NCBI RefSeq assembly: GCF_051903065.1
Contig: NZ_CP178438.1
DNA from: Escherichia coli
GTDB lineage: Bacteria; Pseudomonadota; Gammaproteobacteria; Enterobacterales; Enterobacteriaceae
Reading direction: 5' to 3' (one strand)
Length of the DNA: 64,000 bases
The notes beneath the pieces were generated by a model. It saw nothing but the letters and a program-made list of their open reading frames with translations. It was not told the origin of the DNA and searched no databases. The position numbers and the translations under genes are program-made. Below are positions 21,223 through 58,785 of the stretch, piece by piece (positions within the stretch are counted from its first letter, which is position 1; every line of letters starts with the position of its first letter).

Positions 21223-21400
21223 GGCACAAAAAAACCACCCGAAGGTGGTTTCACGACACTGCTTATTGCTTTGATTTTATTCTTATCTTTCCCATGGTAC
21301 CCGGAGCGGGACTTGAACCCGCACAGCGCGAACGCCGAGGGATTTTAAATTCTACGCAGGATCAATGAGTTACATAGCAGTGCATTGCGAAACTTTGCTG
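21223..21400. repeat. att direct repeat copy 1 (host-side leuZ terminator, displaced 56-nt 3' end of tRNA-Leu at 21295-21350, and about 50 bp of shared element-end sequence)
   Basis: Near-identical to 23538-23712; the part through gggattttaaat matches 58630-58754 inside intact leuZ. Confidence 0.85.
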
Positions 21401-21630
21401 TAATTGTTTACTCATTTTACTGTAATTGGCAGTAAATAGATAGACTTGGATAACTTTGAGCACAGAATCTGCACAGGTAAGTCCCCTCTCACGGAGGCCT
21501 ACCTGTGCTATATCTATATGACTGCAAAGTTACGAGTTTGACTGGAAATCTTCAATTATCTTCTGATTGTAATCATCCAGATACTTTTGCAGTTCATCCC
21601 TGTCGATCAGACGTACCAAGGCTGATTCAG

Positions 21631-22171
21631 CTAACTCTTTCGCAGAGCGAGTGAGTAGGAATTAGTCACAACCATCGCCTCATCACAACCATAGAATGTT
21701 TTAGCAGAGATCACCTGCTGCACCGCCGAGTTACCTACAGAACCAGAATAATTTTTCGCCTGAATAACCATATCCTTACCAAATCGAGTGACGAAGAGAT
21801 CTGCCCCCTGATCTTGCGTTCTCTTGGTTTCTTTGACGTCATAGCCCATAGTCTGGAATACTTCCACAAGGAAATCTTCAAACTGGAAACCGTCCATTGC
21901 ATCAACTAAATACATGGTGACGAATTTGTTAGGGTTAAAATGTTCGAGCCGTGTAGCTAATCTATCAACCAGAATATCAAAATAAATATGTTCGCACACA
22001 GCTAAGTATTTTTTAACTTCATCAAATGAAACTAAAGGAACACCAGGCGTAGCCTCCACTTTTTCATTGAACTCTACTGATGAGAACTCTATTTTATTGC
22101 TCCATATATAGAATAGAAACAATGAAAGATCTGCCCTAAAAGTGGTACCCGCTTCCTCAATCCATGACTTC
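21631..22171 (-). pseudogene. Mrr-type restriction endonuclease domain gene, 5' end removed by IS1
   Basis: ORF 21631..22185 begins inside the IS1 left end; product has the Mrr_cat-like motif GADLFVTRFGKDMVIQAKNY (D..QxK). Confidence 0.6.
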
Positions 22172-22939
22172 GGTGATGCTGCCAACTTACTGATTTAGTG
22201 TATGATGGTGTTTTTGAGGTGCTCCAGTGGCTTCTGTTTCTATCAGCTGTCCCTCCTGTTCAGCTACTGACGGGGTGGTGCGTAACGGCAAAAGCACCGC
22301 CGGACATCAGCGCTATCTCTGCTCTCACTGCCGTAAAACATGGCAACTGCAGTTCACTTACACCGCTTCTCAACCCGGTACGCACCAGAAAATCATTGAT
22401 ATGGCCATGAATGGCGTTGGATGCCGGGCAACAGCCCGCATTATGGGCGTTGGCCTCAACACGATTTTACGTCACTTAAAAAACTCAGGCCGCAGTCGGT
22501 AACCTCGCGCATACAGCCGGGCAGTGACGTCATCGTCTGCGCGGAAATGGACGAACAGTGGGGCTATGTCGGGGCTAAATCGCGCCAGCGCTGGCTGTTT
22601 TACGCGTATGACAGGCTCCGGAAGACGGTTGTTGCGCACGTATTCGGTGAACGCACTATGGCGACGCTGGGGCGTCTTATGAGCCTGCTGTCACCCTTTG
22701 ACGTGGTGATATGGATGACGGATGGCTGGCCGCTGTATGAATCCCGCCTGAAGGGAAAGCTGCACGTAATCAGCAAGCGATATACGCAGCGAATTGAGCG
22801 GCATAACCTGAATCTGAGGCAGCACCTGGCACGGCTGGGACGGAAGTCGCTGTCGTTCTCAAAATCGGTGGAGCTGCATGACAAAGTCATCGGGCATTAT
22901 CTGAACATAAAACACTATCAATAAGTTGGAGTCATTACC
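22172..22939 (+). mobile_element. insAB: IS1 copy 1 (768 bp, insA 22227-22502, insB frame 22421-22924), no target-site duplication
   Basis: Left end ggtgatgctgccaacttactgat and right end aagttggagtcattacc; Ins[40 protein letters not shown]; flanking 9-mers differ (catgacttc vs gccgcttca). Confidence 0.95.
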
Positions 22940-23364
22940 GCCGCTTCACGCAATATCATTTCAGGCTGGCCCGGGAGCTTAATATTCCTCCCCAGGCAAT
23001 CGTGTATGCCAATCTACTGGCGTGGGATTACGACGGACTGACCCCTCTCAATCGCCCTCAAAATGAAGTGCAGGAAGTTATATTAGCCTCGCTGAAGCTG
23101 CTGGCGGTACAAATTAAACACCTTGAGCCTGATTTCATCATCTTTGCATCTGGAGCCCGGAGAACAGACTACATCATAAAACAGGTGCTTACTGAGCTGG
23201 GCGGCTATGAGACTTCTGCAGTCATTCCGGGGAAGCTATGGGAGTTCAAAACAGGTAATGCAATCTGTTTCAGAATTGCCCATCCAAGGGCTATGCGCGG
23301 ACACAAGAAGTACAGAGATGAGGTGATTGCACGAATTAAGCAACTTTGTACTCAGGGTGGCTAG
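22940..23364 (+). pseudogene. 3' fragment of the 57717-58457 gene (UDG-like), truncated by IS1
   Basis: 22940-23600 is near-identical to 58033-58698; translation YANLLAWDYDGLTPLNRPQNEVQEV... matches the C-terminal 141 codons of the 246-aa protein. Confidence 0.8.
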
Positions 23365-23537
23365 AGCATTACAGTTTGCTCAGCAGGCCCCCCCTTCCCG
23401 GAAGAGTACCGGAAAACAGGCAAAGCGGCCTGGTTCTCTATGCTGGAGGCGACACGTTCAATTCGGCATTGCCAGGCTGTAGATTGCAGCTCATTGCACC
23501 CCGTGAGCACAGGATATGCACAGGGCGTGAATTGCAT

Positions 23538-23712
23538 GCACAAAAAAACCACCCGGAGGTGGTTTCACGACACTGCTTATTGCTTTGATTATTCTGATGT
23601 TTCCCATGGTACCCGGAGTGGGACTTGAACCCACACAGCGCGAACGCCGAGGGATTTTAAATTCTACGTAGGATCAATGAGTTACATAGCAGTGCATTGC
23701 GAAACTTTGCTG
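23538..23712. repeat. att direct repeat copy 2 (internal; terminator plus tRNA-Leu 3' fragment 23607-23662 with two substitutions)
   Basis: Aligns with copy 1 and copy 3; followed by element-end sequence that diverges after gaaactttgctg. Confidence 0.85.
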
Positions 23713-23938
23713 ACGTTGAATGGTCGTCTTTGCAACCACTGGCAGAAAATGGATAGCCGTAGATTGCGTTGAGCACAGAAACAGCACAGGGTAATCGTCT
23801 ACCTGGTCCTGTAAAGGAGGTTGTTGCCACACAAGCTAAAGCGCTTGACCTGCCCCCAGTATTCGGTACAACTGTCAGTTAGTAATGGACTGACCCCACC
23901 CCGGTAGACGATCCTGCCCTATAGTTACCTTTAACTAA

Positions 23939-26900
23939 TTATGCCAATTCAGACTCAAACGCTGCATCATTCGCTTCAGCCTCTGCGCCATCAATTAATG
24001 CCAAGACTCGGTCAAGAAAGCGTTGCGCTTCGTATACATCTGTTGCTTGCCGCAGATAATGAGGTATTCGTTCAACAAACTCGGAACGTGATAAAGGCTG
24101 ATGTTCCAGCAAAGCCTCAAGCATTGCGGGCCGCAACAAACGACGATCAGCATCAACATTAGGAAGCTCAACCTCAATGACATGTGTGGCAAAATACTTA
24201 AGTTGCTCCTTAAGCCCCAAATTGGGCATAAGAGAATCAATTGAGTCAGACGCCACTTCAGCGCTTGACTCAATCGTTTCTACATATTCATAGGAAGGTA
24301 CAACAACGTCTGGAGCCAATGTTTTAAGCTCATGGAGTTTACGGATAATCGGAGATAGAACCTCATCAGGATTACTGAACCAATCAGTGGACCAAATGCG
24401 GCTAATTCTCCAACCCAAACGCTCCAGAACCTCTTGACGCAAACGGTCACGATCACGAGCAGATTTAGCTGAGTGATAAGCCGCACCATCACACTCTATG
24501 CCCATTAAGTAACGGCCAGGACAACCTGGATCTTTCACAGCTAGATCAATAAAGAATCCTGCAACCCCTACCTGAGGTTCACACTCAAACCCAGCGTGAT
24601 TGAGTGCTTCCATTACAGCAACCTCAAAGTCACTATCTGGAGCCCTGCCGGTATGCGTTGTGAGGGAATCTAGTTTGCCACTTTCGGCAAACTGTAAAAA
24701 ACCTTTCAACGAAATAACACCAAGTTTACTGATTTCACTCGTCAATACATCTTCAGAACGCATTGAACTAAACACATGCATCCGTTTTTTTGATCGAGTG
24801 AAAAGCACATTCAAGCGACGCCAGCCAACATCGGAATTGATAGGTCCAAAGCGTTGATAAACCTTTCCACCATGCTCAGAAGGTCCATAGGTAAAGGAAA
24901 TAAAGATTACATCACGCTCATCCCCTTGAACGTTCTCAAGGTTTTTCACAAAAAGTGGCTCTTCCATGGCATATAAGCCATCGATTGCATCGTTAAATTC
25001 AGGGCGATTTCGGCGCAATTCATCGATAGCGCGCTCAATTTGATCGCGTTGCTTGGAACTCATGGCCACTACCCCGAGTGACTCACCCGGCCGGTGTTGC
25101 GCATGATGAAGTACGGCCTCAGCAACTGCTTGGGCTTCTTCAATATTGTGTTGATTGGAGAACCGACCTTTTGACACATAGGTAAATTTAATCCCATACT
25201 CTGGAGACTCAGCATTTGGGGAAGGGAATATCACCAAATCACTGTTATAAAAATGGCGGTTAGAGTATGCAATCAACTTTTCATGTCGTGAACGATAGTG
25301 CCAACGCAAACGTCTCATAGGAAACAGTGGCAAAGCAGCATCCAAAATGCTGTCAGTATCACTTAAAGCCGCGGCATCATCGTCATCTTCTCCGTCGGCA
25401 CTTCGATCAAAGAAACTGGTTGGTGGTAGCTGTTTCGGGTCACCAACGACCACTAGTTGCTTGCCCCTCGCGATGACACCCAATGCATCCTCTGGCTTCA
25501 CCTGAGACGCTTCGTCCATCACCACCAGATCAAATTCCATTCGTCCAGGTTCTAGGTAATGAGCTGCTGACATTGGCCCCATCATGAAACAAGGTTTAAT
25601 TGCAACCAGCGCATTACATGCACGGTTAACCAATTGCCTAATTGGAATATGTCTGGTTTTTTTACCCAACTCATTTTTGATCAAAGCTAGTTCTGTATAT
25701 TCACTTTTCTTACCACCAGAATTCCCTTCTGGTATATTTCGGCAAGCAATTTTTGCTGCAATCCGCTGACGTTGTAATTCAATCAGTTTTTTATCGTAAT
25801 CTTTAAATGACTTCTGCAAAGCATTGCGCTGTGAGCCGGAAACTCTCATCAATTCAGGGTGGATGTGAATAACCTCCCGCGCCAGCTGGTCATGAATTGC
25901 TAATGCTAAACCCAATTCAACTTTTTCAATCGGGAGCGAGCCCGCAAGTACAGCACTCCAGATTCGCTGCAATCCATTTTCATGCATCTGCTCGTAACAA
26001 CGAATAAAGTTAACCCACCCGTTCAACCAACGGGGTTGCTGTATTGCTCTTTCGTTGCGCTCGATTAATGTATTAAGAGAACCATCAGTCGACTTGAGCC
26101 ACTGACTCCGCTCTAACTTTGTTTCTAGCGCATATAACTCAGCATTTTTAATCTGTTCATTCCATTTCGAAACTATTTCCCCACCATCACGACATAGTAA
26201 ATCGTAATCACTACCACTAGCCAAATGTCTGATCTGGGTAGCCAAGGATACGCAATTTATCTTATCAACCAGTTGCTCGGCAAAATTCAGCGTGTCGTTA
26301 ATAGTGTCTAACGTCAGTTGATTATTTTTATACGCACCGCAAGCCAATGGGGTTAATTGTAAAAACGCCCCTAACTGTAACGAGTCATTTTCAAGGGATA
26401 TCTGAAGATCGTTTATGTTTTGCAAAATCTCGGAGGAATGAGTCATCTGCTCTAATGATATATCTGGATTGATAAACCATCCCTGCAAGGCAATGAGAGT
26501 ATTCCGCACCTGTCGGTAAGATTGCATCAATACACCTTGCTCACCTAACCAAGATGCATGTTCTTCCAACAAGCTAGAAATACGCGGTAATAACTTAGCC
26601 TCGTGCTCGACCCGTTTAACCAAAGTCATTAATCTTGAGCTAATCTGCGATTTCTCGATTAAATGCACACCTTTGATAATCTCACCATCTAGGTTAAATA
26701 ATCCAGAGCCTATCGCAACTCGCTTTCCAAAACCTATCCCGTAACAAGCTCGGACCTTCTTGTACCAATCACGCAATAACATGAGTTGTTCACAGTCGGT
26801 GTCCAACCCTCGGAATGCATTACCAAGTTGATTACCAAAGTCACTTTGTTCAAACCGTTGTAACAGCTCCGAATACTTGAGCAAATCAGCTGAGCAGCGT

Positions 26901-29686
26901 TTTAACTCAGCAAACTTAGTGTCAGGCTTACGAGATTGCGCCATGAGCAGTGCCTTGGCACTACGCCAATCACTCTTAAACCATGCAAATAATCCCCCTT
27001 GCTGGATAACAGCAACGGCATGCGCGAGCATCTCTTGGGAAGGCAACTGGTCCAATTGATACAAAGTAGATAGACCATCTCTTAAAGGACGCAATGTTTC
27101 GATTTGACACATTAAGTCGCGCAATACTGCATCGATATCATCATCATCAAAAAGAGGATCTCGAACTCTAATAAGCTCAGTCGGTAAAGCACCCAGAATC
27201 GACAACAACTCAGAGCAGAATAGCAATCCAGCTTGCGAATCATCGATATACGAAGCAATACCATCTGGCAAAGCATTTTTGAAATCGTTTAATTGCGCAT
27301 AAATAGATGATAACTCATCATGAATTGATTGGATGGATTCAAGCCACCTGACCAAATCACGTAAAGTGAAATCCTCTGCTGCACCATATTTTTCCAGCTC
27401 TTCACGAGGAAAGTCACACGATTGTCCTTGTTCTAAAAGTCGTAGCTTTTGAGGCTCGATAACCTGGCTCAAGGCCACATAATGACCTTGTAGCAACTCG
27501 AACCTATCTAAATAGTGACGCACCCGTGCAATGGCATCGGGTGAATCTAGCTCACTAAGTGCTGGGAAATGCTCTGAACCACACAACACTGGAAGATTCG
27601 ACTGATCTTCTACCAATTGCTCAATATATTGAAGCGTATTAAGGCTTTCGCCTTCTAACGCCCACTTATCTACATATTCTTGATAGCTATGTTGAAAGTC
27701 GATAATTGATGTCTGCCAAGTTTGTAGCAAATCGACTATACGAGCGCTGTCAAACAATTGAATTTGTGTGTTATTCACACCGCTCCAAGGGTGCTCATAT
27801 ATTTCTGCATTAGCCCCCACCTGCTCACGAACCTCTTTGTAGATGCGGCTAAACTCTACTATTTGGTCACGCAGCCGTAATTGGGTCACTTTATCCAACT
27901 GCTTCCCGGAAAGGTTTTCGATATGAAGTGCTGTTGCATCAATATCTAATTTGTGACGATAACGGGTTGCACCACTCAAAATCTGATGGATCGTTTTGCC
28001 TGTTTGCGCCCATTGGTTATTGATCAATGCGGCATATTCATTGAGCTGCTGCTTAAGATCTTCATAACGCAAAATCTGAGCATCAATCTCTTCCATAGTA
28101 GGCATGGTCGCCTGACTCACCAAGCGAGCATTAATATCATCCAGCACCTTGCGCTTATGAGTTTTATGACTGTGCAACTCTAAGCAAAATTGACCTAGCC
28201 CCGCACGATCCAAGCGACGTTTGACGACCTCCAGTGCAGCCATCTTCTCTGCCACAAACAGGACTTTCTTACCGTTGAGCAGAGCTGCTGCAATCAAGTT
28301 GGTGATCGTTTGTGATTTGCCACTACCAGGAGGGCCCTCAATGACTAAGTTTTGACCACGGATAGCATCGATCAACGCACTGTGCTGCGAGCTATCCGCA
28401 TCATCGATTAGTGGAACCTTGTCATGAATATCAGGGTAACTATCGATGCAGTACTCATGCTGACCGAAGCCACCAGGTAAGCCGGAATTCTCTTGACCAC
28501 AGCTCTGACTGGTGAAAAAGCGACGAATTACTTCATGAGACAATATATTGCGCTTGTCACAAGGCCAGCGGGCAGGATCGAGGTCAAGATACATCATCAT
28601 CTTGCCAAAATTGAGCAAGCTAAGTGCACCATAACGTTTCACAGACCATTTAGGTTTGTGCTGCTCTACAACCTTCTTCACCGAAGCAAAATAAGACTCT
28701 GGAGTTTCCTCTTCATTGAACAAAGGAAGAGCGAGGCCAAAGTCAGCCTGAAGTTTTTCCTTCAAAGAGAGATTGGGCAAAATATCTTCACCCGTGTAAT
28801 AAAGTTGAAACTTGTAAAGACCATCCTTCGGATCTAATTTTCCTCGTTCACATCTCACCGGAATTGTAAATAACGGTGCATAACGTGCCTTTTCAGAGGA
28901 ATCGCTTTCATACCACTCAAGGAACCCTAACGCCAAATACAAGATGTTGGCGCCACTCTCCTCCAAAGCAGTTTGAGCCTTACCATAGATGGCGCGCAAA
29001 CAAGCTTCCAGTTCATTTGGATAAAGCAGAGCCTGTATCCGATTATCGTCATGAGAGGGATTGGAAGAAGATATACTAATCTCATTCCCAGCCTTTGCCT
29101 GTCGTTCAAAATCCTCAAGCCCTTCATAGCCTGCTAAGCAGCACGCCTCCTTCAACGCTGACAAAGCTATACCTTGATTAACGTATTCAGAACGAATCCC
29201 TGTTAATTTTCCATTCTGGCCTTGGGCATATTGCAAGATAAACTGATGGGCTTTTTCCAGCAACTCTCTATCTGAATCAGAAACAACCGTTTTATGGCTA
29301 TCTGGTAAATCAAAATCTGTACGGATTCCTAAGACGTGCGCCCAATCCTTAGCGCTAGGATGAGCTCTTAACTGTATATCTTTACCATCTGGCCCAACTT
29401 TGAGATAGCCATGCTCTAACAGCTGCGCTCTAGTTGGATCGGGCACAGGAGCAAATTCCATCGGGATTTCCGAGCAAAGGGTTTCATAAAGCTGTTCTGG
29501 TAATTCATCAACAATACGTAGTGAAGACCCTTTTTGAGTGATAGGGAAATTCAAAAGTCGATTTCGAGACGTAAGGTCCAATAACTTCTTACGCATAGCC
29601 TCGAGGGAAGTCAGAATAAAATCTGAGCCTCCTTGATTGAGTTCCTCTGCTGTAGAGGTATCTACAGTCGACATAATGTTCTCCAT
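23939..29686 (-). CDS. 1915-aa DUF4011 / SF1 (Upf1-like) helicase / Vsr-like (DUF559) endonuclease protein; resembles single-gene Hhe-type defence proteins
   Basis: N-terminus LLDLTSRNRLLNF; Walker A GPPGSGKSQT; Walker B and motif III DLVVMDEASQ...VVVGDPKQLPP; C-terminal GFFIDLAVKD...GIECDGAAYH...RDRDR. Confidence 0.75.
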   Translation of the reverse strand: MENIMSTVDTSTAEELNQGGSDFILTSLEAMRKKLLDLTSRNRLLNFPITQKGSSLRIVDELPEQLYETLCSEIPMEFAPVPDPTRAQLLEHGYLKVGPDGKDIQLRAHPSAKDWAHVLGIRTDFDLPDSHKTVVSDSDRELLEKAHQFILQYAQGQNGKLTGIRSEYVNQGIALSALKEACCLAGYEGLEDFERQAKAGNEISISSSNPSHDDNRIQALLYPNELEACLRAIYGKAQTALEESGANILYLALGFLEWYESDSSEKARYAPLFTIPVRCERGKLDPKDGLYKFQLYYTGEDILPNLSLKEKLQADFGLALPLFNEEETPESYFASVKKVVEQHKPKWSVKRYGALSLLNFGKMMMYLDLDPARWPCDKRNILSHEVIRRFFTSQSCGQENSGLPGGFGQHEYCIDSYPDIHDKVPLIDDADSSQHSALIDAIRGQNLVIEGPPGSGKSQTITNLIAAALLNGKKVLFVAEKMAALEVVKRRLDRAGLGQFCLELHSHKTHKRKVLDDINARLVSQATMPTMEEIDAQILRYEDLKQQLNEYAALINNQWAQTGKTIHQILSGATRYRHKLDIDATALHIENLSGKQLDKVTQLRLRDQIVEFSRIYKEVREQVGANAEIYEHPWSGVNNTQIQLFDSARIVDLLQTWQTSIIDFQHSYQEYVDKWALEGESLNTLQYIEQLVEDQSNLPVLCGSEHFPALSELDSPDAIARVRHYLDRFELLQGHYVALSQVIEPQKLRLLEQGQSCDFPREELEKYGAAEDFTLRDLVRWLESIQSIHDELSSIYAQLNDFKNALPDGIASYIDDSQAGLLFCSELLSILGALPTELIRVRDPLFDDDDIDAVLRDLMCQIETLRPLRDGLSTLYQLDQLPSQEMLAHAVAVIQQGGLFAWFKSDWRSAKALLMAQSRKPDTKFAELKRCSADLLKYSELLQRFEQSDFGNQLGNAFRGLDTDCEQLMLLRDWYKKVRACYGIGFGKRVAIGSGLFNLDGEIIKGVHLIEKSQISSRLMTLVKRVEHEAKLLPRISSLLEEHASWLGEQGVLMQSYRQVRNTLIALQGWFINPDISLEQMTHSSEILQNINDLQISLENDSLQLGAFLQLTPLACGAYKNNQLTLDTINDTLNFAEQLVDKINCVSLATQIRHLASGSDYDLLCRDGGEIVSKWNEQIKNAELYALETKLERSQWLKSTDGSLNTLIERNERAIQQPRWLNGWVNFIRCYEQMHENGLQRIWSAVLAGSLPIEKVELGLALAIHDQLAREVIHIHPELMRVSGSQRNALQKSFKDYDKKLIELQRQRIAAKIACRNIPEGNSGGKKSEYTELALIKNELGKKTRHIPIRQLVNRACNALVAIKPCFMMGPMSAAHYLEPGRMEFDLVVMDEASQVKPEDALGVIARGKQLVVVGDPKQLPPTSFFDRSADGEDDDDAAALSDTDSILDAALPLFPMRRLRWHYRSRHEKLIAYSNRHFYNSDLVIFPSPNAESPEYGIKFTYVSKGRFSNQHNIEEAQAVAEAVLHHAQHRPGESLGVVAMSSKQRDQIERAIDELRRNRPEFNDAIDGLYAMEEPLFVKNLENVQGDERDVIFISFTYGPSEHGGKVYQRFGPINSDVGWRRLNVLFTRSKKRMHVFSSMRSEDVLTSEISKLGVISLKGFLQFAESGKLDSLTTHTGRAPDSDFEVAVMEALNHAGFECEPQVGVAGFFIDLAVKDPGCPGRYLMGIECDGAAYHSAKSARDRDRLRQEVLERLGWRISRIWSTDWFSNPDEVLSPIIRKLHELKTLAPDVVVPSYEYVETIESSAEVASDSIDSLMPNLGLKEQLKYFATHVIEVELPNVDADRRLLRPAMLEALLEHQPLSRSEFVERIPHYLRQATDVYEAQRFLDRVLALIDGAEAEANDAAFESELA

Positions 29687-33371: not shown

Positions 33372-33973
<602 letters not shown>

Positions 33974-34004
33974 GACAAATGAGCCCATTGGAATAAGTTA
34001 GAAA

Positions 34005-38044: not shown

Positions 38045-38093
38045 TAATCCTTTTCTTTCTGGCGCTACTCGCTACTGGTCACATGAAGATTCA

Positions 38094-43104: not shown

Positions 43105-43610
43105 CTTTAAAACGATAAAAACAAATGAGAGACTGAATAAATATCAGCCTCTCACATAGTTAATAAGTTTCAACTTTAATATCTGAGAAATCATTCTATC
43201 TGGGCCTTGTGGACATTAATCCTCCTGGCAACATACGACTCAAAGTTTCAGCCTTGTATAGCCATCATAAATAGTACAGGATTGGGTGCTGCTCGCATGT
43301 ATCATTCTGGTATTAATACTGATCATCAGGGGTAACTTGTATGTAATTTAAAAACCATCATATCTCAAATCTCACAATGCTCATATTTTAACCATAAAAA
43401 CTAACCGATTTACACCCGCCATATATTATCATAACTTATTGTATTTAAATGGCTATAAGCCTCTAACTCACTGATTACACCATTAAATTCAAGCCATATC
43501 CTTACGCAGATACAAGCTTGCCCCTGCTGCCATTCACGTTTTAGGATTACCTCGCTAACACGACATGCTACTTTTTAAATCAGTGTAATAATTCAAACGA
43601 GGATAAAATT

Positions 43611-46163: not shown

Positions 46164-46364
46164 ATGTATTTAACCATTAAGCAGTTTGCAGAAAGATTTA
46201 ATCTTTCCGCATCCACGGTTGCGTCAGATATATCGCGCAACCCAGGAAAACTCCCGCCCTTCATCAGAATTGGGCGGGCTATACGATTCTCTCTTGATGA
46301 TATTGTTGAGTGGGAAAATGCACATCGTCAAAACAAACTTAAAGGTGATATAAATGGTTACTAA
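46164..46364 (+). CDS. AlpA-family HTH protein (excisionase/regulator-like)
   Basis: 66-aa ORF MYLTIKQFAERFNLSASTVASDISRNPGKLPPFIRIGRAIRFSLDDIVEWE. Confidence 0.75.
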   Translation: MYLTIKQFAERFNLSASTVASDISRNPGKLPPFIRIGRAIRFSLDDIVEWENAHRQNKLKGDINGY

Positions 46365-48104: not shown

Positions 48105-50705
48105 ATGAGCAATAATTTGCAGGACATCCTCGCTGCCGCCTCGGGGTATCAGTCCGTGACTTCAGAGCCAGCGTTCAATCGTAAAAGACCTAAAACGCTT
48201 GATGATTATCCTGTGATACCACCTGCATCAAAAAAAGTATCTGTTATTTCAAGTGACCTGACACTCCATATCGGTTTTGATACCGAATATGTTTTCAACC
48301 CTGAAACACGACAGAATGATATTCTGTCATATCAGAGTTATGTTGTCTTACCCGATAATACAGGTATATCGAACATTATCTATCCACCTGACTCACAGAA
48401 AAAATCCCGGCTGTCTTTTAAGGAATTTCTCTGTCAAACGATTACACCGCTTCTTGAAACGGGTGTGATTACAAAATGGCCCGGTATTATTAATATATAT
48501 GCGCATTTCATTCGTGCGGATATCGCCTCCTTTGCCAATTTCTGGTCAGACTACAAAATTCTTCTGAAAGGAATACGCGGTACTGTCAGCAGCTTCAAAA
48601 ATCGTTACGGTATCGATTTTGATGAACAGCAGGAACGTCGCGTAAAGACTGAACAGATAATGTTTGACAAACGAACTTCCCCTCCGCGTTGCAGTAACGT
48701 AGCTTTCATCGATACACTGCTTATCACTCCCGGGGGTATGGGTCTGGCTGAATGTGGTGAATTACTGGGTCTTCCCAAACTCACCATTCCTGCACCTTAT
48801 TCCATAACCAATATGCGTGAATATCTTCTGGGCGACAGAGCAGGGTTTGAAGCCTATGCTCTGCGGGATGCCGAGATTGCGGTTCGTTATGCTTTACAGG
48901 TTCGCAATTTTTGCGCCCGGGAGCTGATGATTGATCGTGTCCCCGCCACCATCGGGGCGATGGCAGTTTCACGGTTCACCAAAACACTTAAAGAAAACAA
49001 TATGTCTCCTGAAGTCTGCCTTGGGACACACATTAAAACCCGTGAACTCTGGCTCACGGAGAAACAGGCATTCCGGACGATTAAAAACCCCGCCAGTGTT
49101 CCTTCAAGAGAGTTGTTTGAAACGTTCCCGATCAACTGTTACCACGGCGGACGCAATGAGTGTTTTATGATGGGGGTTACACCGTCTGATCACTGGTATG
49201 ACTACGATCTGGCTGGAGCGTATACCACCGGGCTATTAGATATCCTCACACCCGATTACGGGAACATCCGCCTCAGTAAAAATCCGGACGATTACTGTGG
49301 GCATGTAATGGGATTTGCGCTTGTCACATTTCGGTTCCCGGAATCAGTTCCCTATCCCAGCCTGCCGGTTCGGACCGATCAATATGGGTTATTCTTTCCA
49401 TTAAGTGGCGAATCATGGGCAACGGCACCTGAAATCGAACTTGCTCTGTCGCTCGGGGCAGAGATGACGATCCATAATGGGATCATCGTCCCCTGGATCT
49501 GTGACACCTCCCCACATAACAGCGAATCAACATCGGTGTTTCTTCCCTTTGTTCAACAGGTCCGTGAGAACCGTAATCGCCATATTAAAGGTTCTCTGGA
49601 GGAGAAATTCTGGAAAGAAATTGGCAACTCGCTTTATGGCAAACTTGCTCAGGGCCTTCGCGCCAAAACCGCCTTTGATACTGCCCGTGGATTAAACAGA
49701 TCCCTCCCACCATCATCGGTTACTCAGCCATTCTTTGCTGCGCATGTGACGGGATTTATCCGCGCCGTTGTCGGGGAACTCATGAATGCTTTGCCTTCTG
49801 ATTCATCGGTTGTCAGCGTCACAACCGATGGTTTTTTGACAAATTGCCCACTTGACAAGATAAACATGAGCGGTCCACTGTCTTCCCGCTTCCAGTCGCT
49901 GTGCGATATTGTTGATCCGGGTTCATCAATGTTGACATGTAAGCATGAGGTCAGCCAGCTTATCGCCATGAAAACCCGGGGGCAGTTAACCTATAGAGCT
50001 ATTCAGGGAAAACCTGTTGTTCATGCCAGGGCTGGCGTCAAACCTCCTGCCGATATTCCACGCAGTGACTATAACGACTATATGGTAGATCTTTACCTTA
50101 ATCGTTTACCCGGTCAGACGTTATCCCGAAGTACGTTGATATCAACGCGTGAGATGTGGCTCTCGGAAAGCGATCTGGTATCCCGGGAACAGGATATCCG
50201 TCTTAATCTGGAATTCGATTTCAAACGCCAGCCCGTACAGCCCGCCATGAATGAAGGGCATTTACTGATGTTTTCCCGCCCGTGGGATAATATGGAAGAG
50301 GCTCTGCAGCAACGCTCTCTTTTCGACGACTGGCGGCAAACGCATACACTGAAGACCCTGGCTGACTGGGATGACTGGTGTGATTTTCTCTATTGCCGGA
50401 CGGTGTTTTCTGATATGAAACTAAAAGTCGGAAGCAAACGTAGTGATGATATTTTAGTCAGACTATTTCTCCGGGCGCTGACTCAGTGCCAATGGGGGCT
50501 GATGCTGAAAGATAAAAAAAGTTATTCCTGTAAAGAGGTTGCTGAATGGCTGACGTCAGAAGGCTATTCAGTAACGGTGACTGATGTAAAAAATGCGGTA
50601 AGAGCAAAAATACCCCAAATGAAATTTAGTTCTGTAACACCGCGAATGAAGTCACTGATGGATATCATAGCCCGTAAATATCCGACATTCTGTCTTCCAG
50701 TCTGA
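48105..50705 (+). CDS. family-B DNA polymerase with piPolB-like motifs (pipolin primer-independent PolB)
   Basis: Exo I in LHIGFDTEYVF; YALRD (Exo III-like); KTRG in AMKTRGQLTY; motif B KEIGNSLYGKLAQ; motif C SVTTDGFL; RBS ggag before ATG 48105. Confidence 0.8.
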   Translation: MSNNLQDILAAASGYQSVTSEPAFNRKRPKTLDDYPVIPPASKKVSVISSDLTLHIGFDTEYVFNPETRQNDILSYQSYVVLPDNTGISNIIYPPDSQKKSRLSFKEFLCQTITPLLETGVITKWPGIINIYAHFIRADIASFANFWSDYKILLKGIRGTVSSFKNRYGIDFDEQQERRVKTEQIMFDKRTSPPRCSNVAFIDTLLITPGGMGLAECGELLGLPKLTIPAPYSITNMREYLLGDRAGFEAYALRDAEIAVRYALQVRNFCARELMIDRVPATIGAMAVSRFTKTLKENNMSPEVCLGTHIKTRELWLTEKQAFRTIKNPASVPSRELFETFPINCYHGGRNECFMMGVTPSDHWYDYDLAGAYTTGLLDILTPDYGNIRLSKNPDDYCGHVMGFALVTFRFPESVPYPSLPVRTDQYGLFFPLSGESWATAPEIELALSLGAEMTIHNGIIVPWICDTSPHNSESTSVFLPFVQQVRENRNRHIKGSLEEKFWKEIGNSLYGKLAQGLRAKTAFDTARGLNRSLPPSSVTQPFFAAHVTGFIRAVVGELMNALPSDSSVVSVTTDGFLTNCPLDKINMSGPLSSRFQSLCDIVDPGSSMLTCKHEVSQLIAMKTRGQLTYRAIQGKPVVHARAGVKPPADIPRSDYNDYMVDLYLNRLPGQTLSRSTLISTREMWLSESDLVSREQDIRLNLEFDFKRQPVQPAMNEGHLLMFSRPWDNMEEALQQRSLFDDWRQTHTLKTLADWDDWCDFLYCRTVFSDMKLKVGSKRSDDILVRLFLRALTQCQWGLMLKDKKSYSCKEVAEWLTSEGYSVTVTDVKNAVRAKIPQMKFSSVTPRMKSLMDIIARKYPTFCLPV

Positions 50706-51459: not shown

Positions 51460-52362
51460 ATGGGTAAGCACGATAAACTTGGATATCGACTCGGATTGAT
51501 ATTAACTCGCCTGAACAATGGTGAGTCACTAGCCGTCCGGGAGTTATCTGAGGAATTTAACGTTTGCGAAAAAACTATCCGTCGCGATCTTACTCAGCGC
51601 CTGTCCTATCTTAATCTGATTCGACAAAATGGTCGCTATCGCCTGTCTGACGGTGTTCTCGGTCAACGCAGCAATGCTGATTTACGTCATTTCACGCGCA
51701 TCCTGGGTATTGAAGGGCTGTTCCCTCGCTGGGATGACAGACTACTGAGTATTTTGTTAGGTAACACGAAAAATAACCCGTTTCTGATAAAACAACGTCC
51801 ATACGAAAACTGCGGATCATTCATGTCAATTCTGAATGTATTATCCGATGCCATCCTGTCACAGAAGAAAGTAAATTTTAATTACAAAGATAAAGAGTTT
51901 CGGGCTGTTGAGCCATACAGACTGGTTAATGACAACGGATTGTGGTATCTCGCTGCCGCCCATGACAGTACATTAAAAAGCTTTGTTATCTCATCTGTCA
52001 AAGACGTTTGCATGAGTAATATCTCTTTCAGGATAATCCCCGAAATTAATGAAAAAATAGAAAAGACAGATGGTATCTGGTATAGCGAAGACCTTATCGA
52101 AGTTCTCATTTCAGTTTCCGCACATGTTGCTCCGTGGTTTACCCACCGTCATCTATTGCCAGGACAGGAAATAATTCATACTTCCCGGTCTGGCGATTTA
52201 CTGGTGATATCACGTGTAACACACACAGATCAGATAATGCCTTTAATGAAATACTGGATACCGGATGTCGAAGTAATACAACCGGCCTCAATCCGTCAAC
52301 AACTTGCTGAAGATATACAATCCGCACTGAAACGTTACACCCAGCCAAGTAACGCCCCGTAA
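51460..52362 (+). CDS. HTH plus WYL-domain transcriptional regulator (BrxR/CapW-like)
   Basis: 300-aa ORF; N-terminal [37 protein letters not shown]; WYL motif in [13 protein letters not shown]. Confidence 0.75.
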
Positions 52363-52423: not shown

Positions 52424-53242
52424 ATGAAAAAATGCCCGGTTCTTCTTGTTGTATCAGGGTTTCTGACCGAAAATGATATATCATGGTTTAACCGAATTAA
52501 AGCAGGGTGTGGCCTTGATGTCAGATACTATAAATGGGAATCGGCAAATCTACTATCCATATTAAGTTCTGACATAGCGAACAAGTGGGGGTTATATACT
52601 CTCTTCCCCCTGAGAACATCTCCTTTATTGTCATCAATCTCCATTCCATTTAAAGCGCGTCAGGCCTGGTATAATGCAACGAAAGCAGCAGTTAATAACA
52701 GAGAAAAATTAGCACACGTAATAAACGAGATATACGTTAAAGAAAAGCGTAATGTGATCATAATGGGTCATTCTTTAGGGACTCGATTAATAAACAATAC
52801 ATTACCCTATATAAAAAATGATAATATTCTCTTAACAATCTCTATGGCCGGAGCCACCCCAATAACAAGTTATACAGAGAACATAATGAAAATGGCTTAC
52901 GGTTCAAAAATGGGGCATTTAAATATCTACAGTGAACATGATAAAGTACTTAACACGATATACCCTCTCGTAGAGTCAGTAACGCCAATTGGGGTTCGGG
53001 AGGTGAGATTCAGACCTGCTCGGGTGATCAACTGGAAGTGGGATATTGGTCACACTGAATATATTACTTCAAACAGGATTGATTCATTAACACACTGGTT
53101 AAATGTTACCTGTGCCGATTTAGCTGATCCAGCCGTAGAAATCACTGACGACGACATGAAATCATTTCATGATATTATTAATCTTGCGAATTTAACATGT
53201 CATAAAAACACTGTCGCACCTAAATTAATATCATTTGAGTAG
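52424..53242 (+). CDS. alpha/beta-hydrolase-fold serine hydrolase (esterase/lipase-like), function unknown
   Basis: 272-aa ORF; nucleophile elbow GHSLG in VIIMGHSLGTRL; candidate triad Asp in SEHDKV and His in DIGHTEY; 61 bp downstream of the WYL gene. Confidence 0.65.
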   Translation: MKKCPVLLVVSGFLTENDISWFNRIKAGCGLDVRYYKWESANLLSILSSDIANKWGLYTLFPLRTSPLLSSISIPFKARQAWYNATKAAVNNREKLAHVINEIYVKEKRNVIIMGHSLGTRLINNTLPYIKNDNILLTISMAGATPITSYTENIMKMAYGSKMGHLNIYSEHDKVLNTIYPLVESVTPIGVREVRFRPARVINWKWDIGHTEYITSNRIDSLTHWLNVTCADLADPAVEITDDDMKSFHDIINLANLTCHKNTVAPKLISFE

Positions 53243-53317: not shown

Positions 53318-54085
53318 GGTGATGCTGCCAACTTACTGATTTAGTGTATGATGGTGTTTTTGAGGTGCTCCAGTGGCTTCTGTTTCTATCAGCTGTCCCT
53401 CCTGTTCAGCTACTGAAGGCGTGGTGCGTAACGGTAAAAGTACTGCCGGACATCAGCGCTATCTCTGCTCTCACTGCCGTAAAACATGGCAACTGCAGTT
53501 CACTTACACCGCTTCTCAACCCGGTACGCACCAGAAAATCATTGATATGGCCATGAATGGCGTTGGATGCCGGGCAACCGCCCGCATTATGAGCGTTGGC
53601 CTCAACACGATTTTCCGCCATTTAAAAAACTCAGGCCGCAGTCGGTAACCTCGCGCATACAGCCGGGCAGTGACGTCATCGTCTGCGCGGAAATGGACGA
53701 ACAGTGGGGCTATGTCGGGGCTAAATCGCGCCAGCGCTGGCTGTTTTACGCGTATGACAGGCTCCGGAAGACGGTTGTTGCGCACGTATTCGGTGAACGC
53801 ACTATGGCGACGCTGGGGCGTCTTATGAGCCTGCTGTCACCCTTTGACGTGGTGATATGGATGACGGATGGCTGGCCGCTGTATGAATCCCGCCTGAAGG
53901 GAAAGCTGCACGTAATCAGCAAGCGATATACGCAGCGAATTGAGCGGCATAACCTGAATCTGAGGCAGCACCTGGCACGGCTGGGACGGAAGTCGCTGTC
54001 GTTCTCAAAATCGGTGGAGCTGCATGACAAAGTCATCGGGCATTATCTGAACATAAAACACTATCAATAAGTTGGAGTCATTACC
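53318..54085 (+). mobile_element. insAB: IS1 copy (768 bp; insA 53373-53648, insB frame 53567-54070) with 9-bp target-site duplication
   Basis: IS1 terminal repeats; TSD ttgatatgg at 53309-53317 and 54086-54094; InsA differs from copy 1 at a few residues. Confidence 0.95.
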
Positions 54086-54629: not shown

Positions 54630-55064
54630 TCAACAACTTTCCACAGTTACCGTTACCCGGTAAATCCCCATAGAGAGATACTCCATAAAATTACGCTCCC
54701 ACAGGGACCAGAGTTCATTCCTCTCTGCTGCCAGTGAAATATCCCCAATCAGATAATGGAATACATAATTCCCCGACCAGCAAAAATCAATTTCTTTTTC
54801 CAGCTCAGGGTAGACACGCCCCATATAACTAAAATCTGTGACATAATCAAAATACCATTCATTATTCTTACGGATAAACCGTATTTCAACGGGATGAAAG
54901 CCCCCGGATTCTGCACTGTAGTCCGGATCACGGAAATTAATAACCACTGCCTCAGTTATTTTTTGTAAAACCTGATTTGCCAGAAGAGTAGTAATATGCT
55001 GCTGAAATTCTTTAGTAACAGGCAGAGTTAATCCTGCCTGTTTTAAGGCATATTGGGTTTGCAT
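54630..55064 (-). CDS. hypothetical protein (144 aa)
   Basis: ORF MQTQYALKQAGLTLPVTKEFQQHITTLLANQ; co-oriented with the integrase-proximal small genes. Confidence 0.5.
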   Translation of the reverse strand: MQTQYALKQAGLTLPVTKEFQQHITTLLANQVLQKITEAVVINFRDPDYSAESGGFHPVEIRFIRKNNEWYFDYVTDFSYMGRVYPELEKEIDFCWSGNYVFHYLIGDISLAAERNELWSLWERNFMEYLSMGIYRVTVTVESC

Positions 55065-55136
55065 AATAAATTTTCCTTTAGAAAGTAAATAGCGGTGTGT
55101 GGTGATTTCTGGTTGTATAACAGTGCAGGAAATAAA

Positions 55137-55670
55137 TTAATCCTCTGTAATCTTTTCCTGGCTACTGATCGTATTAAGTTTATTCAACCGCTCCCTCCAG
55201 TCCGGGTATAATACATGAGTAAATAACTTCTCTGGATGTGCCTCCAGCAGACATATATCCGGGGAGCGTAAAACAGCAGCCAGAAAACCTGCATTGTTGG
55301 CGCTTGCCCCTTTGAATAGCGGCCTGAATACTCCGGATGAGAAGCCGGTAGCAGGTTGTGTTTCCAGAACGGTTGCAATCTTTGAAAGTGAGATCCAGTC
55401 CTTAGAGAACAACCCTCCACAGCCATTTGCCACCAGACGAAGATAAAGTTCATTGTCCACCTCTGATATCGCCAGTTGCCATGTCAGCATACCACTTGCC
55501 TTAGGACTGATTTTTTCTGCCTGGCCTGTTTCAATGAGCAACTGATAGTCTTTTACATCAGATAATGTTTGTTCATCTGCACTGAGATTTTCATGAATAA
55601 CCTCTGCCTCATTTTTAATCTCCTTCGAAACTGACTCAACATTATTTTTAACTAATTTTGATTTACTCAT
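55137..55670 (-). CDS. hypothetical protein (177 aa)
   Basis: ORF MSKSKLVKNNVESVSKEIKNEAEVIHENLSADEQ; no recognisable motif. Confidence 0.5.
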   Translation of the reverse strand: MSKSKLVKNNVESVSKEIKNEAEVIHENLSADEQTLSDVKDYQLLIETGQAEKISPKASGMLTWQLAISEVDNELYLRLVANGCGGLFSKDWISLSKIATVLETQPATGFSSGVFRPLFKGASANNAGFLAAVLRSPDICLLEAHPEKLFTHVLYPDWRERLNKLNTISSQEKITED

Positions 55671-55695
55671 TTTGCGTTCCTGGTTTTGCTTGTGT

Positions 55696-56067
55696 TTAAT
55701 AGCGTGATTCGGCCATAGAAATTAATAAATCAATACCCTTCAGAGGGCAATCGGGGTGAAATAACAGATAAATACCGTTCCCGTTATCTTCCGTAACAGA
55801 AAGCATCAGGTAATAGTCATCTGTCAGACGGACTACAAATTCTGGATTTGCAATTAACTGATGAATCACATTTAATACCTGCGCTTTAATATCTTCAGGT
55901 ACATCATCGGGCTCGACATATATTAATGTCACCCCGACTTCATCCCAGAAACTCATTGCAGAGTATTCATCTTCAAATGGGAGTACCAGCTCTGTTTTCA
56001 ACAGACTCATTACTGACTCCGGAAGAGATAGTGATGGCAGACTTTGCCAGTTAGCGATAAACTTCAT
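55696..56067 (-). CDS. hypothetical acidic protein (123 aa)
   Basis: ORF MKFIANWQSLPSLSLPESVMSLLKTELVLPFEDEY; Asp/Glu-rich. Confidence 0.5.
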   Translation of the reverse strand: MKFIANWQSLPSLSLPESVMSLLKTELVLPFEDEYSAMSFWDEVGVTLIYVEPDDVPEDIKAQVLNVIHQLIANPEFVVRLTDDYYLMLSVTEDNGNGIYLLFHPDCPLKGIDLLISMAESRY

Positions 56068-56436: not shown

Positions 56437-57666
56437 TCACATCTGCTTCGTAGCCGCAGTATTCAGAAGCAGGTCAGTCACTCCCTGCCCTGTCTGACGC
56501 ATACGTTCCGGTGTTAATTTCGCGTAACGTTCTGTACTCTGAATACTGGCATGCGCCAGTTGGGCTTTAACGTCATACAGGCTGAATTGACCACTCGAAA
56601 CCAGTAAAGAGGCAACAGAATGACGTGTGGTGTGAAAACAGACTTCATTCTTGTCTATACCGCACTGTGCCAGTATTTTTTCATATGCCCATCGGGGTTC
56701 CGATATCGGTTTTCCATTATCCTTAATGGCGAACAGATACGGATTACTGCCAACTCGTGGGATAGCATCAATAATCGATAATGCGGCATCGCTTAGATAT
56801 ACCGTCCGACTGCGACCATTTTTTGTATAAGGAATGAACAGAGTACGATTGGCCCGGTCGATATGTTCATGCCTGACATTAAGCATTTCTGATTTGCGTG
56901 TACCGGTTAACAACAACATGGCTATCAATCCCCCGGCAGCTTTGTTGGGATATTGGGTAGCAGCGTCAAGAATGCGCCTGATCTCATCAGCATCAAAAAA
57001 GCGCGTCCGCTGATTATTCTCTTTCAGTAAAGGGATCTTATCGGCTTCATTCTTTTCCAGCACATCCTGTCGCAACGCATAACGCCCCATCGTTTTCAGA
57101 ATAGCAAGGGCTCTGTTACAGGTAGACGGCGCATATTGCTGCCCGTGAATACGCCCCTCCAGCATGTCAAACAGCACCTGTTGTATCTCTCTGGCCCTGA
57201 GATCGCAGTAACGTATCTTTCCCAGACGAGGTTCAATGTATTGCGTGAAACGCTGAACATCCTTATCCCAGGACTTTTTATGGCGCTTGATGAACGGAAC
57301 ATAGGTCTGGTGAAAAAACTCACTAAGCGTTGGCATCGCACGATAATTATCGCGCTCTGCCTTGGGGTCATTTCCAAGTGCAATCGCCTCCTTATGACGG
57401 CGAGCTATCTGGCGAGCTGTCCCCACATCAATTTCAGGGAATCTGCCAATACTGATACTTTTTTTGGTACCGTGGAATGTGTAGCGCAGGAGGAAACGTT
57501 TGTTACCCGTTCGACCTGAGAGACATTTGAGGCCAATAACTTCGGTATCAGATACCTCAAGCTCTGTAGATCGGGTATCTGTGTTTGCCGGAAGGGCTTT
57601 GATGGATGAATTGGTGAATCGGAAGGATTTTTGCATATTTATCCTCATGTATCTGATTGATATCAT
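56437..57666 (-). CDS. tyrosine-type site-specific integrase (P4-like), next to the att/leuZ junction; start may be the internal Met at 57636
   Basis: 409-aa ORF; catalytic motifs LLTGTRKSEM, HTTRHSVASLL and ERYAKL. Confidence 0.88.
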   Translation of the reverse strand: MISIRYMRINMQKSFRFTNSSIKALPANTDTRSTELEVSDTEVIGLKCLSGRTGNKRFLLRYTFHGTKKSISIGRFPEIDVGTARQIARRHKEAIALGNDPKAERDNYRAMPTLSEFFHQTYVPFIKRHKKSWDKDVQRFTQYIEPRLGKIRYCDLRAREIQQVLFDMLEGRIHGQQYAPSTCNRALAILKTMGRYALRQDVLEKNEADKIPLLKENNQRTRFFDADEIRRILDAATQYPNKAAGGLIAMLLLTGTRKSEMLNVRHEHIDRANRTLFIPYTKNGRSRTVYLSDAALSIIDAIPRVGSNPYLFAIKDNGKPISEPRWAYEKILAQCGIDKNEVCFHTTRHSVASLLVSSGQFSLYDVKAQLAHASIQSTERYAKLTPERMRQTGQGVTDLLLNTAATKQM

Positions 57667-57716
57667 GAAAATAATATATATCTGAAGGTGTTTTTATTAC
57701 GGGGCAGGATTGAAGA

Positions 57717-58457
57717 ATGGAAAAGCTATTAGACGCGTACAAACGGATATTGCAGGAAGTTAACGCCCAGTCATTTAACCTGAATGAGGATAAATACTCA
57801 GGCGTATTTTTACCCGTACCCTTTGAAGAATACTGGCATTCACCGGTAAAAATCATGCTGGTTGGACGTGAAACCGCAGGCTGGAATACGCTGAATGGTA
57901 AGAATACGATATCACGGGTGTTGGGACTTATACCTGACGTTACCATCGGGCAAGTGGTTGAAGAAGCTGTAGATCGTTACAGGAAACATCTTCCGGTACA
58001 AAATTATGGCACCGCCAACCTCAAATCACGTAGCCGCTTCACGCAATATCATTTCAGGCTGGCCCGGGAGCTTAATATCCCTCCTCAGGCTATCGTGTAT
58101 GCCAATCTACTGGCGTGGGATTACGACGGACTGACCCCTCTCAATCGCCCTCAAAATGAAGTGCAGGAAGTTATATTAGCCTCGCTGAAGCTGCTGGCGG
58201 TACAAATTAAACACCTTGAGCCTGATTTCATGATCTTTGCATCCGGAGCCCGGAGAACAGACTACATCATTAAACAGGTGCTTACTGAGCTGGGCGGTTA
58301 TGAGACTTCTTCAGTCATTCCGGGGAAGCTGTGGGAGTTCAAAACAGGTAATACAATCTGTTTCAGAATTGCCCATCCAAGGGCTATGCGCGGACACCAG
58401 AAGTACAGAGATGAGGTGATTGCACGAATTAAGCAACTTTGTACTAAGGGCGGCTAG
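57717..58457 (+). CDS. putative uracil-DNA glycosylase-like protein (assignment tentative)
   Basis: 246-aa ORF; possible UDG-like motifs VGRETAGW and AHPRAM by position only; its 3' part is duplicated at 22940-23364. Confidence 0.45.
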   Translation: MEKLLDAYKRILQEVNAQSFNLNEDKYSGVFLPVPFEEYWHSPVKIMLVGRETAGWNTLNGKNTISRVLGLIPDVTIGQVVEEAVDRYRKHLPVQNYGTANLKSRSRFTQYHFRLARELNIPPQAIVYANLLAWDYDGLTPLNRPQNEVQEVILASLKLLAVQIKHLEPDFMIFASGARRTDYIIKQVLTELGGYETSSVIPGKLWEFKTGNTICFRIAHPRAMRGHQKYRDEVIARIKQLCTKGG

Positions 58458-58629
58458 AGCATTACAACTTGCTCAGCAGGCCCCCCTTCCCGGAAGAGTA
58501 CCGGAAAACAGGCAAAGCGGCCTGGTTCTCTATGCTGGAGGCGACACGTTCAATTCGGCATTGCCAGGCTGTAGATTGCAGCTCATTGCACCCCGTGCGC
58601 ACAGGATATGCACAGGGCGTGAATTGCAT

Positions 58630-58754
58630 GCACAAAAAAACCACCCGAAGGTGGTTTCACGACACTGCTTATTGCTTTGATTATTCTGATGTTTCCCATG
58701 GTACCCGGAGCGGGACTTGAACCCGCACAGCGCGAACGCCGAGGGATTTTAAAT
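58630..58754. repeat. att direct repeat copy 3 (element-borne terminator plus the 3' 56 nt of intact leuZ)
   Basis: Matches copies 1 and 2 through gggattttaaat, after which the intact tRNA continues. Confidence 0.85.
58634..58657 (-). terminator. Rho-independent terminator of the glyW-cysT-leuZ operon (also present in att copies 1 and 2)
   Basis: Minus-strand hairpin aaccacc-ttcg-ggtggtt followed by ttttttt. Confidence 0.75.
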
Positions 58755-58785
58755 CCCTTGTGTCTACCGATTCCACCATCCGGGC
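58699..58785 (-). tRNA. leuZ: tRNA-Leu (UAA anticodon)
   Basis: Reverse complement reads GCCCGGATGGTGGAATCGGTAGACACAAGGGATTTAAAATCCC...CTCCGGGTACCA (87 nt, CCA end). Confidence 0.95.

Follow-up and report, generated by a model that had tools for sequence, protein, structure and literature searches.

An essentially complete pipolin and the remnant of a second: a probable tandem array of integrative elements in the tRNA gene leuZ of Escherichia coli

We analysed a 64,000-nt stretch of Escherichia coli DNA (the window; all coordinates given below are window positions) that carries a large integrative element at leuZ, the gene for tRNA-Leu(UAA). This gene (58699-58785, minus strand) is intact, as judged with ARAGORN and from an Rfam tRNA match of 57.7 bits, and is followed by the genes for tRNA-Cys and tRNA-Gly. 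Beyond this tRNA cluster, on the leuZ side of the element, lie pgsA and uvrC, while tyrP and yecA (20434-21099) flank the opposite side. In strain K-12, yecA (1990954-1991619) and leuZ (1991815-1991901) are separated by a gap of 195 bp, which in the window is extended to approximately 37.5 kb; this bears out a first-pass annotation of the DNA, according to which the two genes, adjacent in K-12, are about 37 kb apart here. Very probably, two integrative elements of the pipolin type are inserted in tandem in leuZ, one essentially complete (unit B) and the other decayed (unit A). Pipolins of E. coli are known to integrate at this locus, the tRNA-Leu gene that lies between yecA and pgsA (PMC7385651, PMC11551731).

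A repeat search combined with BLAST revealed three direct repeats of 131-133 nt (21218-21350, 23532-23662 and 58624-58754), which share 96-98% identity, a similarity far beyond chance for three copies of this length. Each of them contains the 3′ 56 nt of leuZ (58699-58754 in the third copy), the downstream spacer and a terminator. This content, and the number and orientation of the repeats, agree with the first-pass annotation, but its first two intervals (21223-21400 and 23538-23712) overrun the core of the attachment sites (att), as the similarity of copies 1 and 2 extends into the adjoining left-end sequence (21351-21480 and 23663-23794, 87% identical). The first copy, att1, is the attL of the array and corresponds to the displaced native sequence (leuZ 3′ 56 nt, the spacer encoding the 3′ external transcribed spacer RNA 3′ETS-leuZ, and the terminator), since the whole repeat is identical to K-12; it belongs to repeat families D4 and D6. 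The second, att2, is an attP-like junction, in which the left end of unit B follows the tRNA/3′ETS copy of unit A. The third, att3, is the attR; this is the copy of unit B, and it now supplies the functional leuZ 3′ 56 nt, 3′ETS and terminator. When the left part of att1 is joined to the right part of att3, the empty site of K-12 is restored, base for base. The att terminators were missed by a simple terminator scan; the terminator is documented by the K-12 annotation and in PMC6191717.

The att copies delimit two units: unit A (21351-23531; 2.2 kb) between att1 and att2, and unit B (23663-58623; about 35 kb) between att2 and att3. Since att2 is flanked by a pipolin right end on its left and a pipolin left end on its right, the arrangement is tandem, in the order att1, unit A, att2, unit B, att3. 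Two tandem or nested units had been suggested at first; the flanks of att2 uphold the tandem order and led us to reject the nested one. The decayed first unit that had been proposed at 21351-23606 is likewise retained, but with a shorter extent, ending at 23531.

Unit B is a typical, essentially complete enterobacterial pipolin. Its most characteristic gene (48105-50705, plus strand) is intact and encodes an 866-aa protein which, judged by its motifs and residue numbering, is a primer-independent family-B DNA polymerase (piPolB). The protein contains D59 and E61 (exonuclease), D368 (polymerase) and the motifs NSLYGK (at residue 508), TTDG (at 573) and KTRG (at 623), in accordance with the family-B polymerase with KTRG and NSLYGK motifs noticed previously. 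The KTRG residues form part of a KH-X8-KTRG motif (KHEVSQLIAMKTRG, residues 613-626), the family-specific piPolB motif that stands in for KxY, and D59, E61, D368, K613, H614, K623 and R625 have the same numbering as in the characterised piPolB of E. coli 3-373-03_S1_C2 (PMC5695915). The nucleotide sequence of the gene is 99.6-100% identical to genes in published pipolin strains; the identity is 99.6% for strains 99-3165 and 2014EL-1346-6, both of which are named as pipolin carriers in PMC7385651. A gene with at least 95% identity is present in 295 of the 5,426 complete E. coli genomes, always on the chromosome. A search for homologous proteins retrieved only near-identical E. coli proteins, labelled "hypothetical" or "DNA polymerase".

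Two tyrosine recombinases are encoded by unit B. The first (44885-46021, plus strand; Pfam Phage_integrase, 6.7e-21, and Phage_int_M; PHROG integrase) occupies by position the slot of the published "IntP2", with an excisionase (Xis)-like gene after it and piPolB downstream. The second (56437-57666, minus strand; Pfam Arm-DNA-bind_3, 7e-14, and Phage_integrase, 1.4e-23) is attR-proximal and lies in the published "IntSXT" slot; a protein with the same accession (WP_001172378.1) is encoded by another pipolin. In tblastn searches against phages both recombinases showed less than 30% identity to any phage integrase, and their domain architectures fit the IntSXT and IntP2 slots. The Xis-like gene (46164-46364, plus strand) encodes a 66-aa helix-turn-helix protein similar to Pfam HTH_17 (1e-8) and to phrog_66, "excisionase and transcriptional regulator" (4e-7). 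Two tyrosine recombinases had also been predicted by the first reading and both stand, but the AlpA-like gene predicted with them has to be renamed, as the 66-aa protein matches HTH_17 and the excisionase PHROG and not Pfam Phage_AlpA.

The part of unit B between piPolB and att3 contains genes for (i) an HTH-WYL regulator (51460-52362, plus strand; PADLOC WYL, 7.5e-22), (ii) a DUF726 protein (52424-53242, plus strand), (iii) a DUF2787 protein (54630-55064, minus strand) and (iv) two small conserved orphan proteins (55137-55670 and 55696-56067, minus strand), genes (ii)-(iv) being assigned from RefSeq annotation. The PHROGs matched in the block 54630-56067 (13741, 28971 and 32947) are all of unknown function. 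The last gene of the unit, a 246-aa orphan (57717-58457, plus strand), is kept beside attR in the comparison loci L002-L006, L009 and L010. This gene order matches the one described in PMC11551731 (section 16), with an integrase near attR, DUF2787, WYL and orphans, and the second recombinase and excisionase near piPolB. No phage structural, lysis, conjugation or mobilisation family was matched in PHROGs (10 ORFs, i.e. open reading frames, searched), NCBIfam, PADLOC or the RefSeq annotation of a near-identical record, and the absence of phage structural genes asserted by the first-pass annotation is borne out by the PHROGs and RefSeq results. The genes for piPolB, the two recombinases and the Xis-like protein are intact, as are all att copies. 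The residues and numbering of piPolB, the published integration site, and the match of core and cargo all support the original proposal that the element is a pipolin.

Two insertion sequences (ISs) are found in this part of unit B. An IS903-like element of the IS5 family (46420-47476, plus strand) generated a 9-bp target duplication (GCAGCAAAC) and interrupts a 212-aa gene, whose 3′ remainder of 170 codons (47546-48058, plus strand) matches residues 43-212 of the uninterrupted protein of locus L003 at 98% identity. The 3′ end of this gene is located 46 bp upstream of the piPolB start codon and, in L003, there is an overlap between its 5′ end and the excisionase-like gene. Uncoupling of piPolB from the upstream operon is a possible consequence of the insertion. 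The second IS, IS1 copy B (53318-54085, plus strand), is a simple insertion with a 9-bp target duplication (TTGATATGG), at a site that is empty in locus L002. Both insertions distinguish this copy from the published E. coli pipolins. The corresponding chromosomal region of strain 23CRST027 (NZ_AP045789.1) differs from window positions 19000-61000 by four single-base indels (at 21655, 23394, 47027 and 53818) and no substitutions; three of the indels were located, all in short one-base runs. They are probably sequencing artefacts, and they alter which IS transposase ORFs look intact or frameshifted.

Unit A starts with a conserved pipolin left end (21351-21480), the counterpart of that of unit B (23663-23794). 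It is followed by a C-terminal fragment of a gene for an Mrr-like restriction endonuclease (21530-22171, minus strand), a cargo pseudogene cut by IS1 (incomplete restriction endonuclease in RefSeq; ZorD, Mrr-like nuclease and PDC-S02 in PADLOC). IS1 copy A itself (22172-22939, plus strand; NCBIfam IS1 transposase) is 98.7% identical to copy B. The right end (22940-23531, plus strand) retains the 3′ part of a homologue of the 246-aa terminal gene. The interval between att1 and att2 thus holds an endonuclease fragment, IS1 and part of a pipolin terminal gene, and no phage genes. IS1 copy A lacks a target-site duplication (its flanks read ...CATGACTTC on the left and GCCGCTTCA... on the right), whereas IS1 copy B and the IS903-like element have clean 9-bp ones, so that unit A looks like the product of a deletion adjacent to IS1.

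The origin of unit A can be traced from its ends. The segment 22940-23662, att2 included, is 97.2% identical to 58033-58754 of unit B, but its part 23240-23662 is closer (99.8%) to the attR-proximal end present in other strains than to unit B (about 97%). The left end with the endonuclease was found in about 200 E. coli genomes and, in strain Z1323CEC0006, the full-length endonuclease gene heads a single-unit, piPolB-bearing pipolin at leuZ. The low identity of the two left ends (87%), together with the match of att2 to strain ECCHD184 described below, points to two lineages and not to a duplication. Unit A is, judging from these comparisons, the remnant of a different pipolin variant and not a copy of unit B.

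A detailed inspection of the att copies located the crossover. Relative to att1 and K-12, the spacers of att2 and att3 both lack 2 nt and have the substitutions T>G and C>G, as well as G>T close to the foot of the terminator. In addition, att2 contains a compensatory change in the T-stem of the tRNA (C-G to U-A) and a terminator-loop variant, and these three positions (the T-stem pair and the loop base) distinguish it from att3. In strain ECCHD184, the functional attR/leuZ has exactly the sequence of att2 (100% identity). All of the informative polymorphisms, including the T-stem pair of att2, travel with the left (3′-of-tRNA) side; the alignment of the three copies, a check proposed with the first-pass annotation, therefore places both crossovers within the last 29 nt of the repeat, CAGCGCGAACGCCGAGGGATTTTAAAT. 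This segment spans the last base of the 5′ strand of the anticodon stem, the anticodon loop and the sequence up to the variable arm, and the identity block begins at the anticodon loop, which fits a crossover of the anticodon-loop type, as known for tRNA-targeting tyrosine integrases. The att polymorphisms were also considered as a means of ordering the two integrations, but this was rejected, because integration of B into the attR of A and of A into the attL of B would yield the same three att sequences.

The flanks of the att copies share a 20-nt motif, GAGCACAGnAnnnGCACAGG, composed of a pair of GCACAG units with a spacing of 11 bp. The window has four copies of it (0.07 expected), at 21458-21477, 23505-23524, 23771-23790 and 58597-58616 (the last, at the right end of unit B, on the plus strand). 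All four copies have one orientation and are placed exclusively in element-side att flanks: att2 and att3 are each preceded by one at a distance of 8 nt, and att1 and att2 are each followed by one at 108 nt, so that each conserved left end and each right end has one. The motif is kept at the same positions in the elements of seven other strains and is absent from K-12. By inference, we propose the paired GCACAG units as candidate arm-type sites of the integrase. A second submotif common to the att flanks, GTAGATTGC, lies near these candidate sites. On this evidence the repeats look like functional recombination sites, rather than the chance local duplications that had been considered as an alternative.

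The following course of events would account for the structure of the locus. A circular form of the element would carry an attP comprised of a copy of the leuZ 3′ half, 3′ETS and terminator. One of the two tyrosine recombinases would recombine this attP with the chromosomal leuZ, with the crossover at the anticodon-loop side of the 131-nt identity block. The copy brought by the element would rebuild a functional tRNA gene at attR, while the native copy would be displaced to attL. The third att copy would originate from a second integration, into an att site of a resident element. The array appears to record two integrations and not a duplication.

A duplication without any second integration could, in principle, create a third att copy and a 2.2-kb unit, if the left copy were lost through an IS1-mediated deletion after unequal crossing-over between attL and attR. 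Direct repeats commonly give rise to tandem duplications, both units contain IS1 (98.7% identical copies), and their right ends share about 97% identity. We nevertheless regard this origin as highly improbable, given that the left ends are only 87% identical, unit B has no counterpart of the endonuclease fragment of unit A, att2 matches the attR of another strain exactly but departs from att3 at three positions, and the right end of unit A is closer to the pipolins of other strains (99.8%) than to its neighbour (about 97%). It is also improbable, though somewhat less so, that unit A derives from a different kind of element sharing the leuZ att, i.e. a P2-like prophage or a pipolin-like island devoid of piPolB. 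Three att copies in E. coli have been ascribed to an adjacent myovirus prophage (PMC7385651), possible piPolB-less pipolin-like islands have been reported (PMC11551731), and the left units of other tandem arrays (L004-L006 and L011) have no piPolB in the parts inspected. Unit A, however, has no phage genes, both of its ends are pipolin ends (in which the two arm motifs and the 3′ portion of the 246-aa gene are preserved), and its endonuclease gene is the one that heads a piPolB-bearing pipolin.

A view that we consider unlikely, but to be taken more seriously than the former two, is that the element is an immobile, fixed defence island, whose att copies are relics and whose patchy distribution results from homologous recombination of the flanking DNA. 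This would be in line with the lack of detected conjugation or packaging genes, with the IS insertions and scars (one of the insertions being in the gene upstream of piPolB) and with the fact that excision is unproven in the literature (PMC9710591). It is contradicted by the intactness of the recombinases, the Xis-like gene, piPolB and the att copies with their arm motifs, by the tandem array, which testifies to two or more site-specific events in one and the same 29-nt segment, and by a published cophylogeny showing horizontal transfer (PMC7385651).

Several observations weigh against our interpretation of the locus as a tandem array of pipolins. Mobility is here read from sequence, and att-mediated excision of pipolins "still needs to be confirmed in vivo" (PMC9710591). 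Either of the two recombinases could be the one that acts on the att sites, and the proposed arm sites are a sequence pattern only. The IS903-like element is inserted in the gene directly upstream of piPolB, which may impair this copy. The decay of unit A has gone too far for a former piPolB gene to be demonstrated. As regards the polymerase, its Pfam match is weak (DNA_pol_B_2, E 0.015) and a sequence search identified no relevant relative in the PDB; weak generic matches are as expected for the divergent piPolB clade, and the assignment consequently rests on the motifs and on near-identity to relatives of the characterised protein.

The att repeat includes a complete small RNA (sRNA). 3′ETS-leuZ, annotated in K-12 as b4759, is a sponge of the sRNAs RyhB and RybB, and its action on RyhB has been described (PMC6191717). 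The whole sponge sequence is present in each att copy (21228-21294, 23542-23606 and 58634-58698, minus strand). As read from these copies, integration replaces the host sponge and the 3′ half of the tRNA with element-borne ones. It is the pipolin-borne variant that is at present transcribed together with glyW-cysT-leuZ; its 5′ linker has lost 2 nt and contains two substitutions. All copies have the same predicted RyhB-pairing segment (duplex energy of -27.2 kcal/mol throughout), so no functional change is indicated, and the exchange of the sponge is probably neutral. The tRNA fragment of att2 (23605-23662) has the T-stem variant that forms part of the functional leuZ of strain ECCHD184 (L009, positions 667-753); since the variant is functional there, pipolin integration alters the sequence of the host tRNA-Leu(UAA) in some strains. 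Within the library of papers searched, none mentions both "pipolin" and "leuZ". It seems to us an even chance that the pattern is a general one, i.e. that pipolin-type elements accrete in tandem at leuZ in E. coli, that one of the units then decays by IS-mediated deletion, and that the integrations swap the tRNA-Leu 3′ half and the sponge, whereby the buffering of RyhB/RybB, or the tRNA, could be subtly changed.

The junction of a pipolin right end, an att and a pipolin left end is present in about 14 of the 5,426 complete genomes. Other tandem arrays at leuZ were recognised in strains 1916D6, LD93-1 and 2017.02.04CC (loci L004, L005 together with L011, and L006). Their left units retain the attR-type integrase, with no piPolB in the parts inspected, and carry as cargo fimbrial operons, a reverse-transcriptase pseudogene, or Hhe together with two paired DUF262 genes. 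One genome matches a 701-bp query spanning the att2 junction at four places and may contain more than three att copies. A further locus, L002 of strain ECNB21-M121 (NZ_CP083585.1, positions 19868-28720), is a single 8.9-kb pipolin derivative without piPolB, in which 46 bp of IS1, IS903, WYL, DUF726, DUF2787 and an integrase are retained. It shares with the window the yecA allele and the junction between the endonuclease gene and IS1. A simple ancestor or derivative relationship between L002 and the window was rejected, as IS1 copy B is missing from the right part of L002, whose identity to unit B is only 98.1%. The history of this locus is a mosaic one, shaped by ISs.

This kind of element is already known, and the array adds a small new anatomical detail. 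E. coli pipolins described previously (PMC5695915, PMC7385651, PMC11551731) have the same piPolB residues, the same tRNA-Leu site with att-like repeats overlapping the tRNA gene, the same core of two recombinases, excisionase, WYL and DUF2787 by attR, and the same bimodular layout, and the cargo is as in PMC11551731. In the published E. coli strains with three att copies the additional interval is a myovirus prophage (PMC7385651), whereas here the third att encloses a 2.2-kb pipolin stump. A survey from 2024 (PMC11551731) detected no "reinfection" by pipolins in Enterobacterales; in the window, the extra unit is pipolin-derived. Side-by-side elements with an attP-like junction and later deletions or rearrangements are also seen in the tandem pipolins of Vibrionales (PMC11551731) and in the accretion of islands and integrative and conjugative elements at tRNA genes. 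In the Vibrio tandems both units keep piPolB and their integrases are 30-35% identical; in contrast, one of the units analysed here is a stump, and the 87-97% identity between the ends of the two indicates that one att served both. Casposons and Polintons likewise encode their own family-B DNA polymerase, but the former have a Cas1 integrase and terminal inverted repeats in place of tyrosine recombinases and tRNA-overlapping direct repeats, and the latter a retroviral-type integrase and a protein-primed PolB in place of a piPolB of the KTRG type.

The main value of this analysis is a correct annotation, as RefSeq labels most of the genes "hypothetical" or "DNA polymerase" and leaves the element unflagged. 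Pipolins are of interest because they carry a primer-independent DNA polymerase and serve as a reservoir from which anti-phage systems can be exchanged. The 29-nt crossover segment, the GCACAG arm motifs and the presence of two lineages at one site may aid the design of excision and integration experiments. Furthermore, an att carrying 3′ETS-leuZ links a mobile element to an sRNA-buffering circuit of the host.

The left half of unit B is occupied by cargo, of which the type I restriction-modification (R-M) genes, PDC-S12, hhe and HEC-06 are systems named for enterobacterial pipolins (PMC11551731). The first gene, hhe (23939-29686, minus strand), encodes a DUF4011 anti-phage helicase (NCBIfam Hhe_antiphage, 2735.9 bits against a cutoff of 2000). 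It is followed by two overlapping DUF262 genes (29861-31903 and 31896-33350, minus strand; DUF262 in RefSeq), which resemble HEC-06/GmrSD-type cargo (PADLOC HEC-06, Orf5 and SspE, 1e-30 to 1e-33). An IS scar (33372-33975, minus strand; RefSeq pseudogenes) is comprised of a fragment of an IS3-family element and the left 378 bp of IS1, with 33598-33975 being 99.5% identical to IS1.

The type I R-M operon (34005-41565, minus strand) consists of hsdM (40009-41565), hsdS (38774-40012), a yecA-like gene (38094-38777), hsdR (34757-38044) and a gene for an M48 peptidase (34005-34760), the assignment being supported by NCBIfam matches of hsdR (8.7e-138) and hsdM (2e-84). The YecA paralogue encoded between hsdR and hsdS matches PADLOC PDC-S12 (1.9e-99) and shares 57% identity with the chromosomal YecA, whose gene borders the element at the att1 side, about 17 kb away. 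The same operon layout, including the YecA paralogue, is found in pipolins of other strains (L003 and L005).

Between the R-M operon and the first recombinase gene, a stretch of low G+C content (0.34-0.37) contains two orphan genes (41869-44741, plus strand), encoding proteins of 411 aa and 376 aa. No significant match to them was obtained in Pfam, NCBIfam, PADLOC or PHROG; the sole hint is a very weak similarity to AbiJ_NTD4 (E 0.05). Hypothetical genes of the same length occupy the corresponding position in locus L003.

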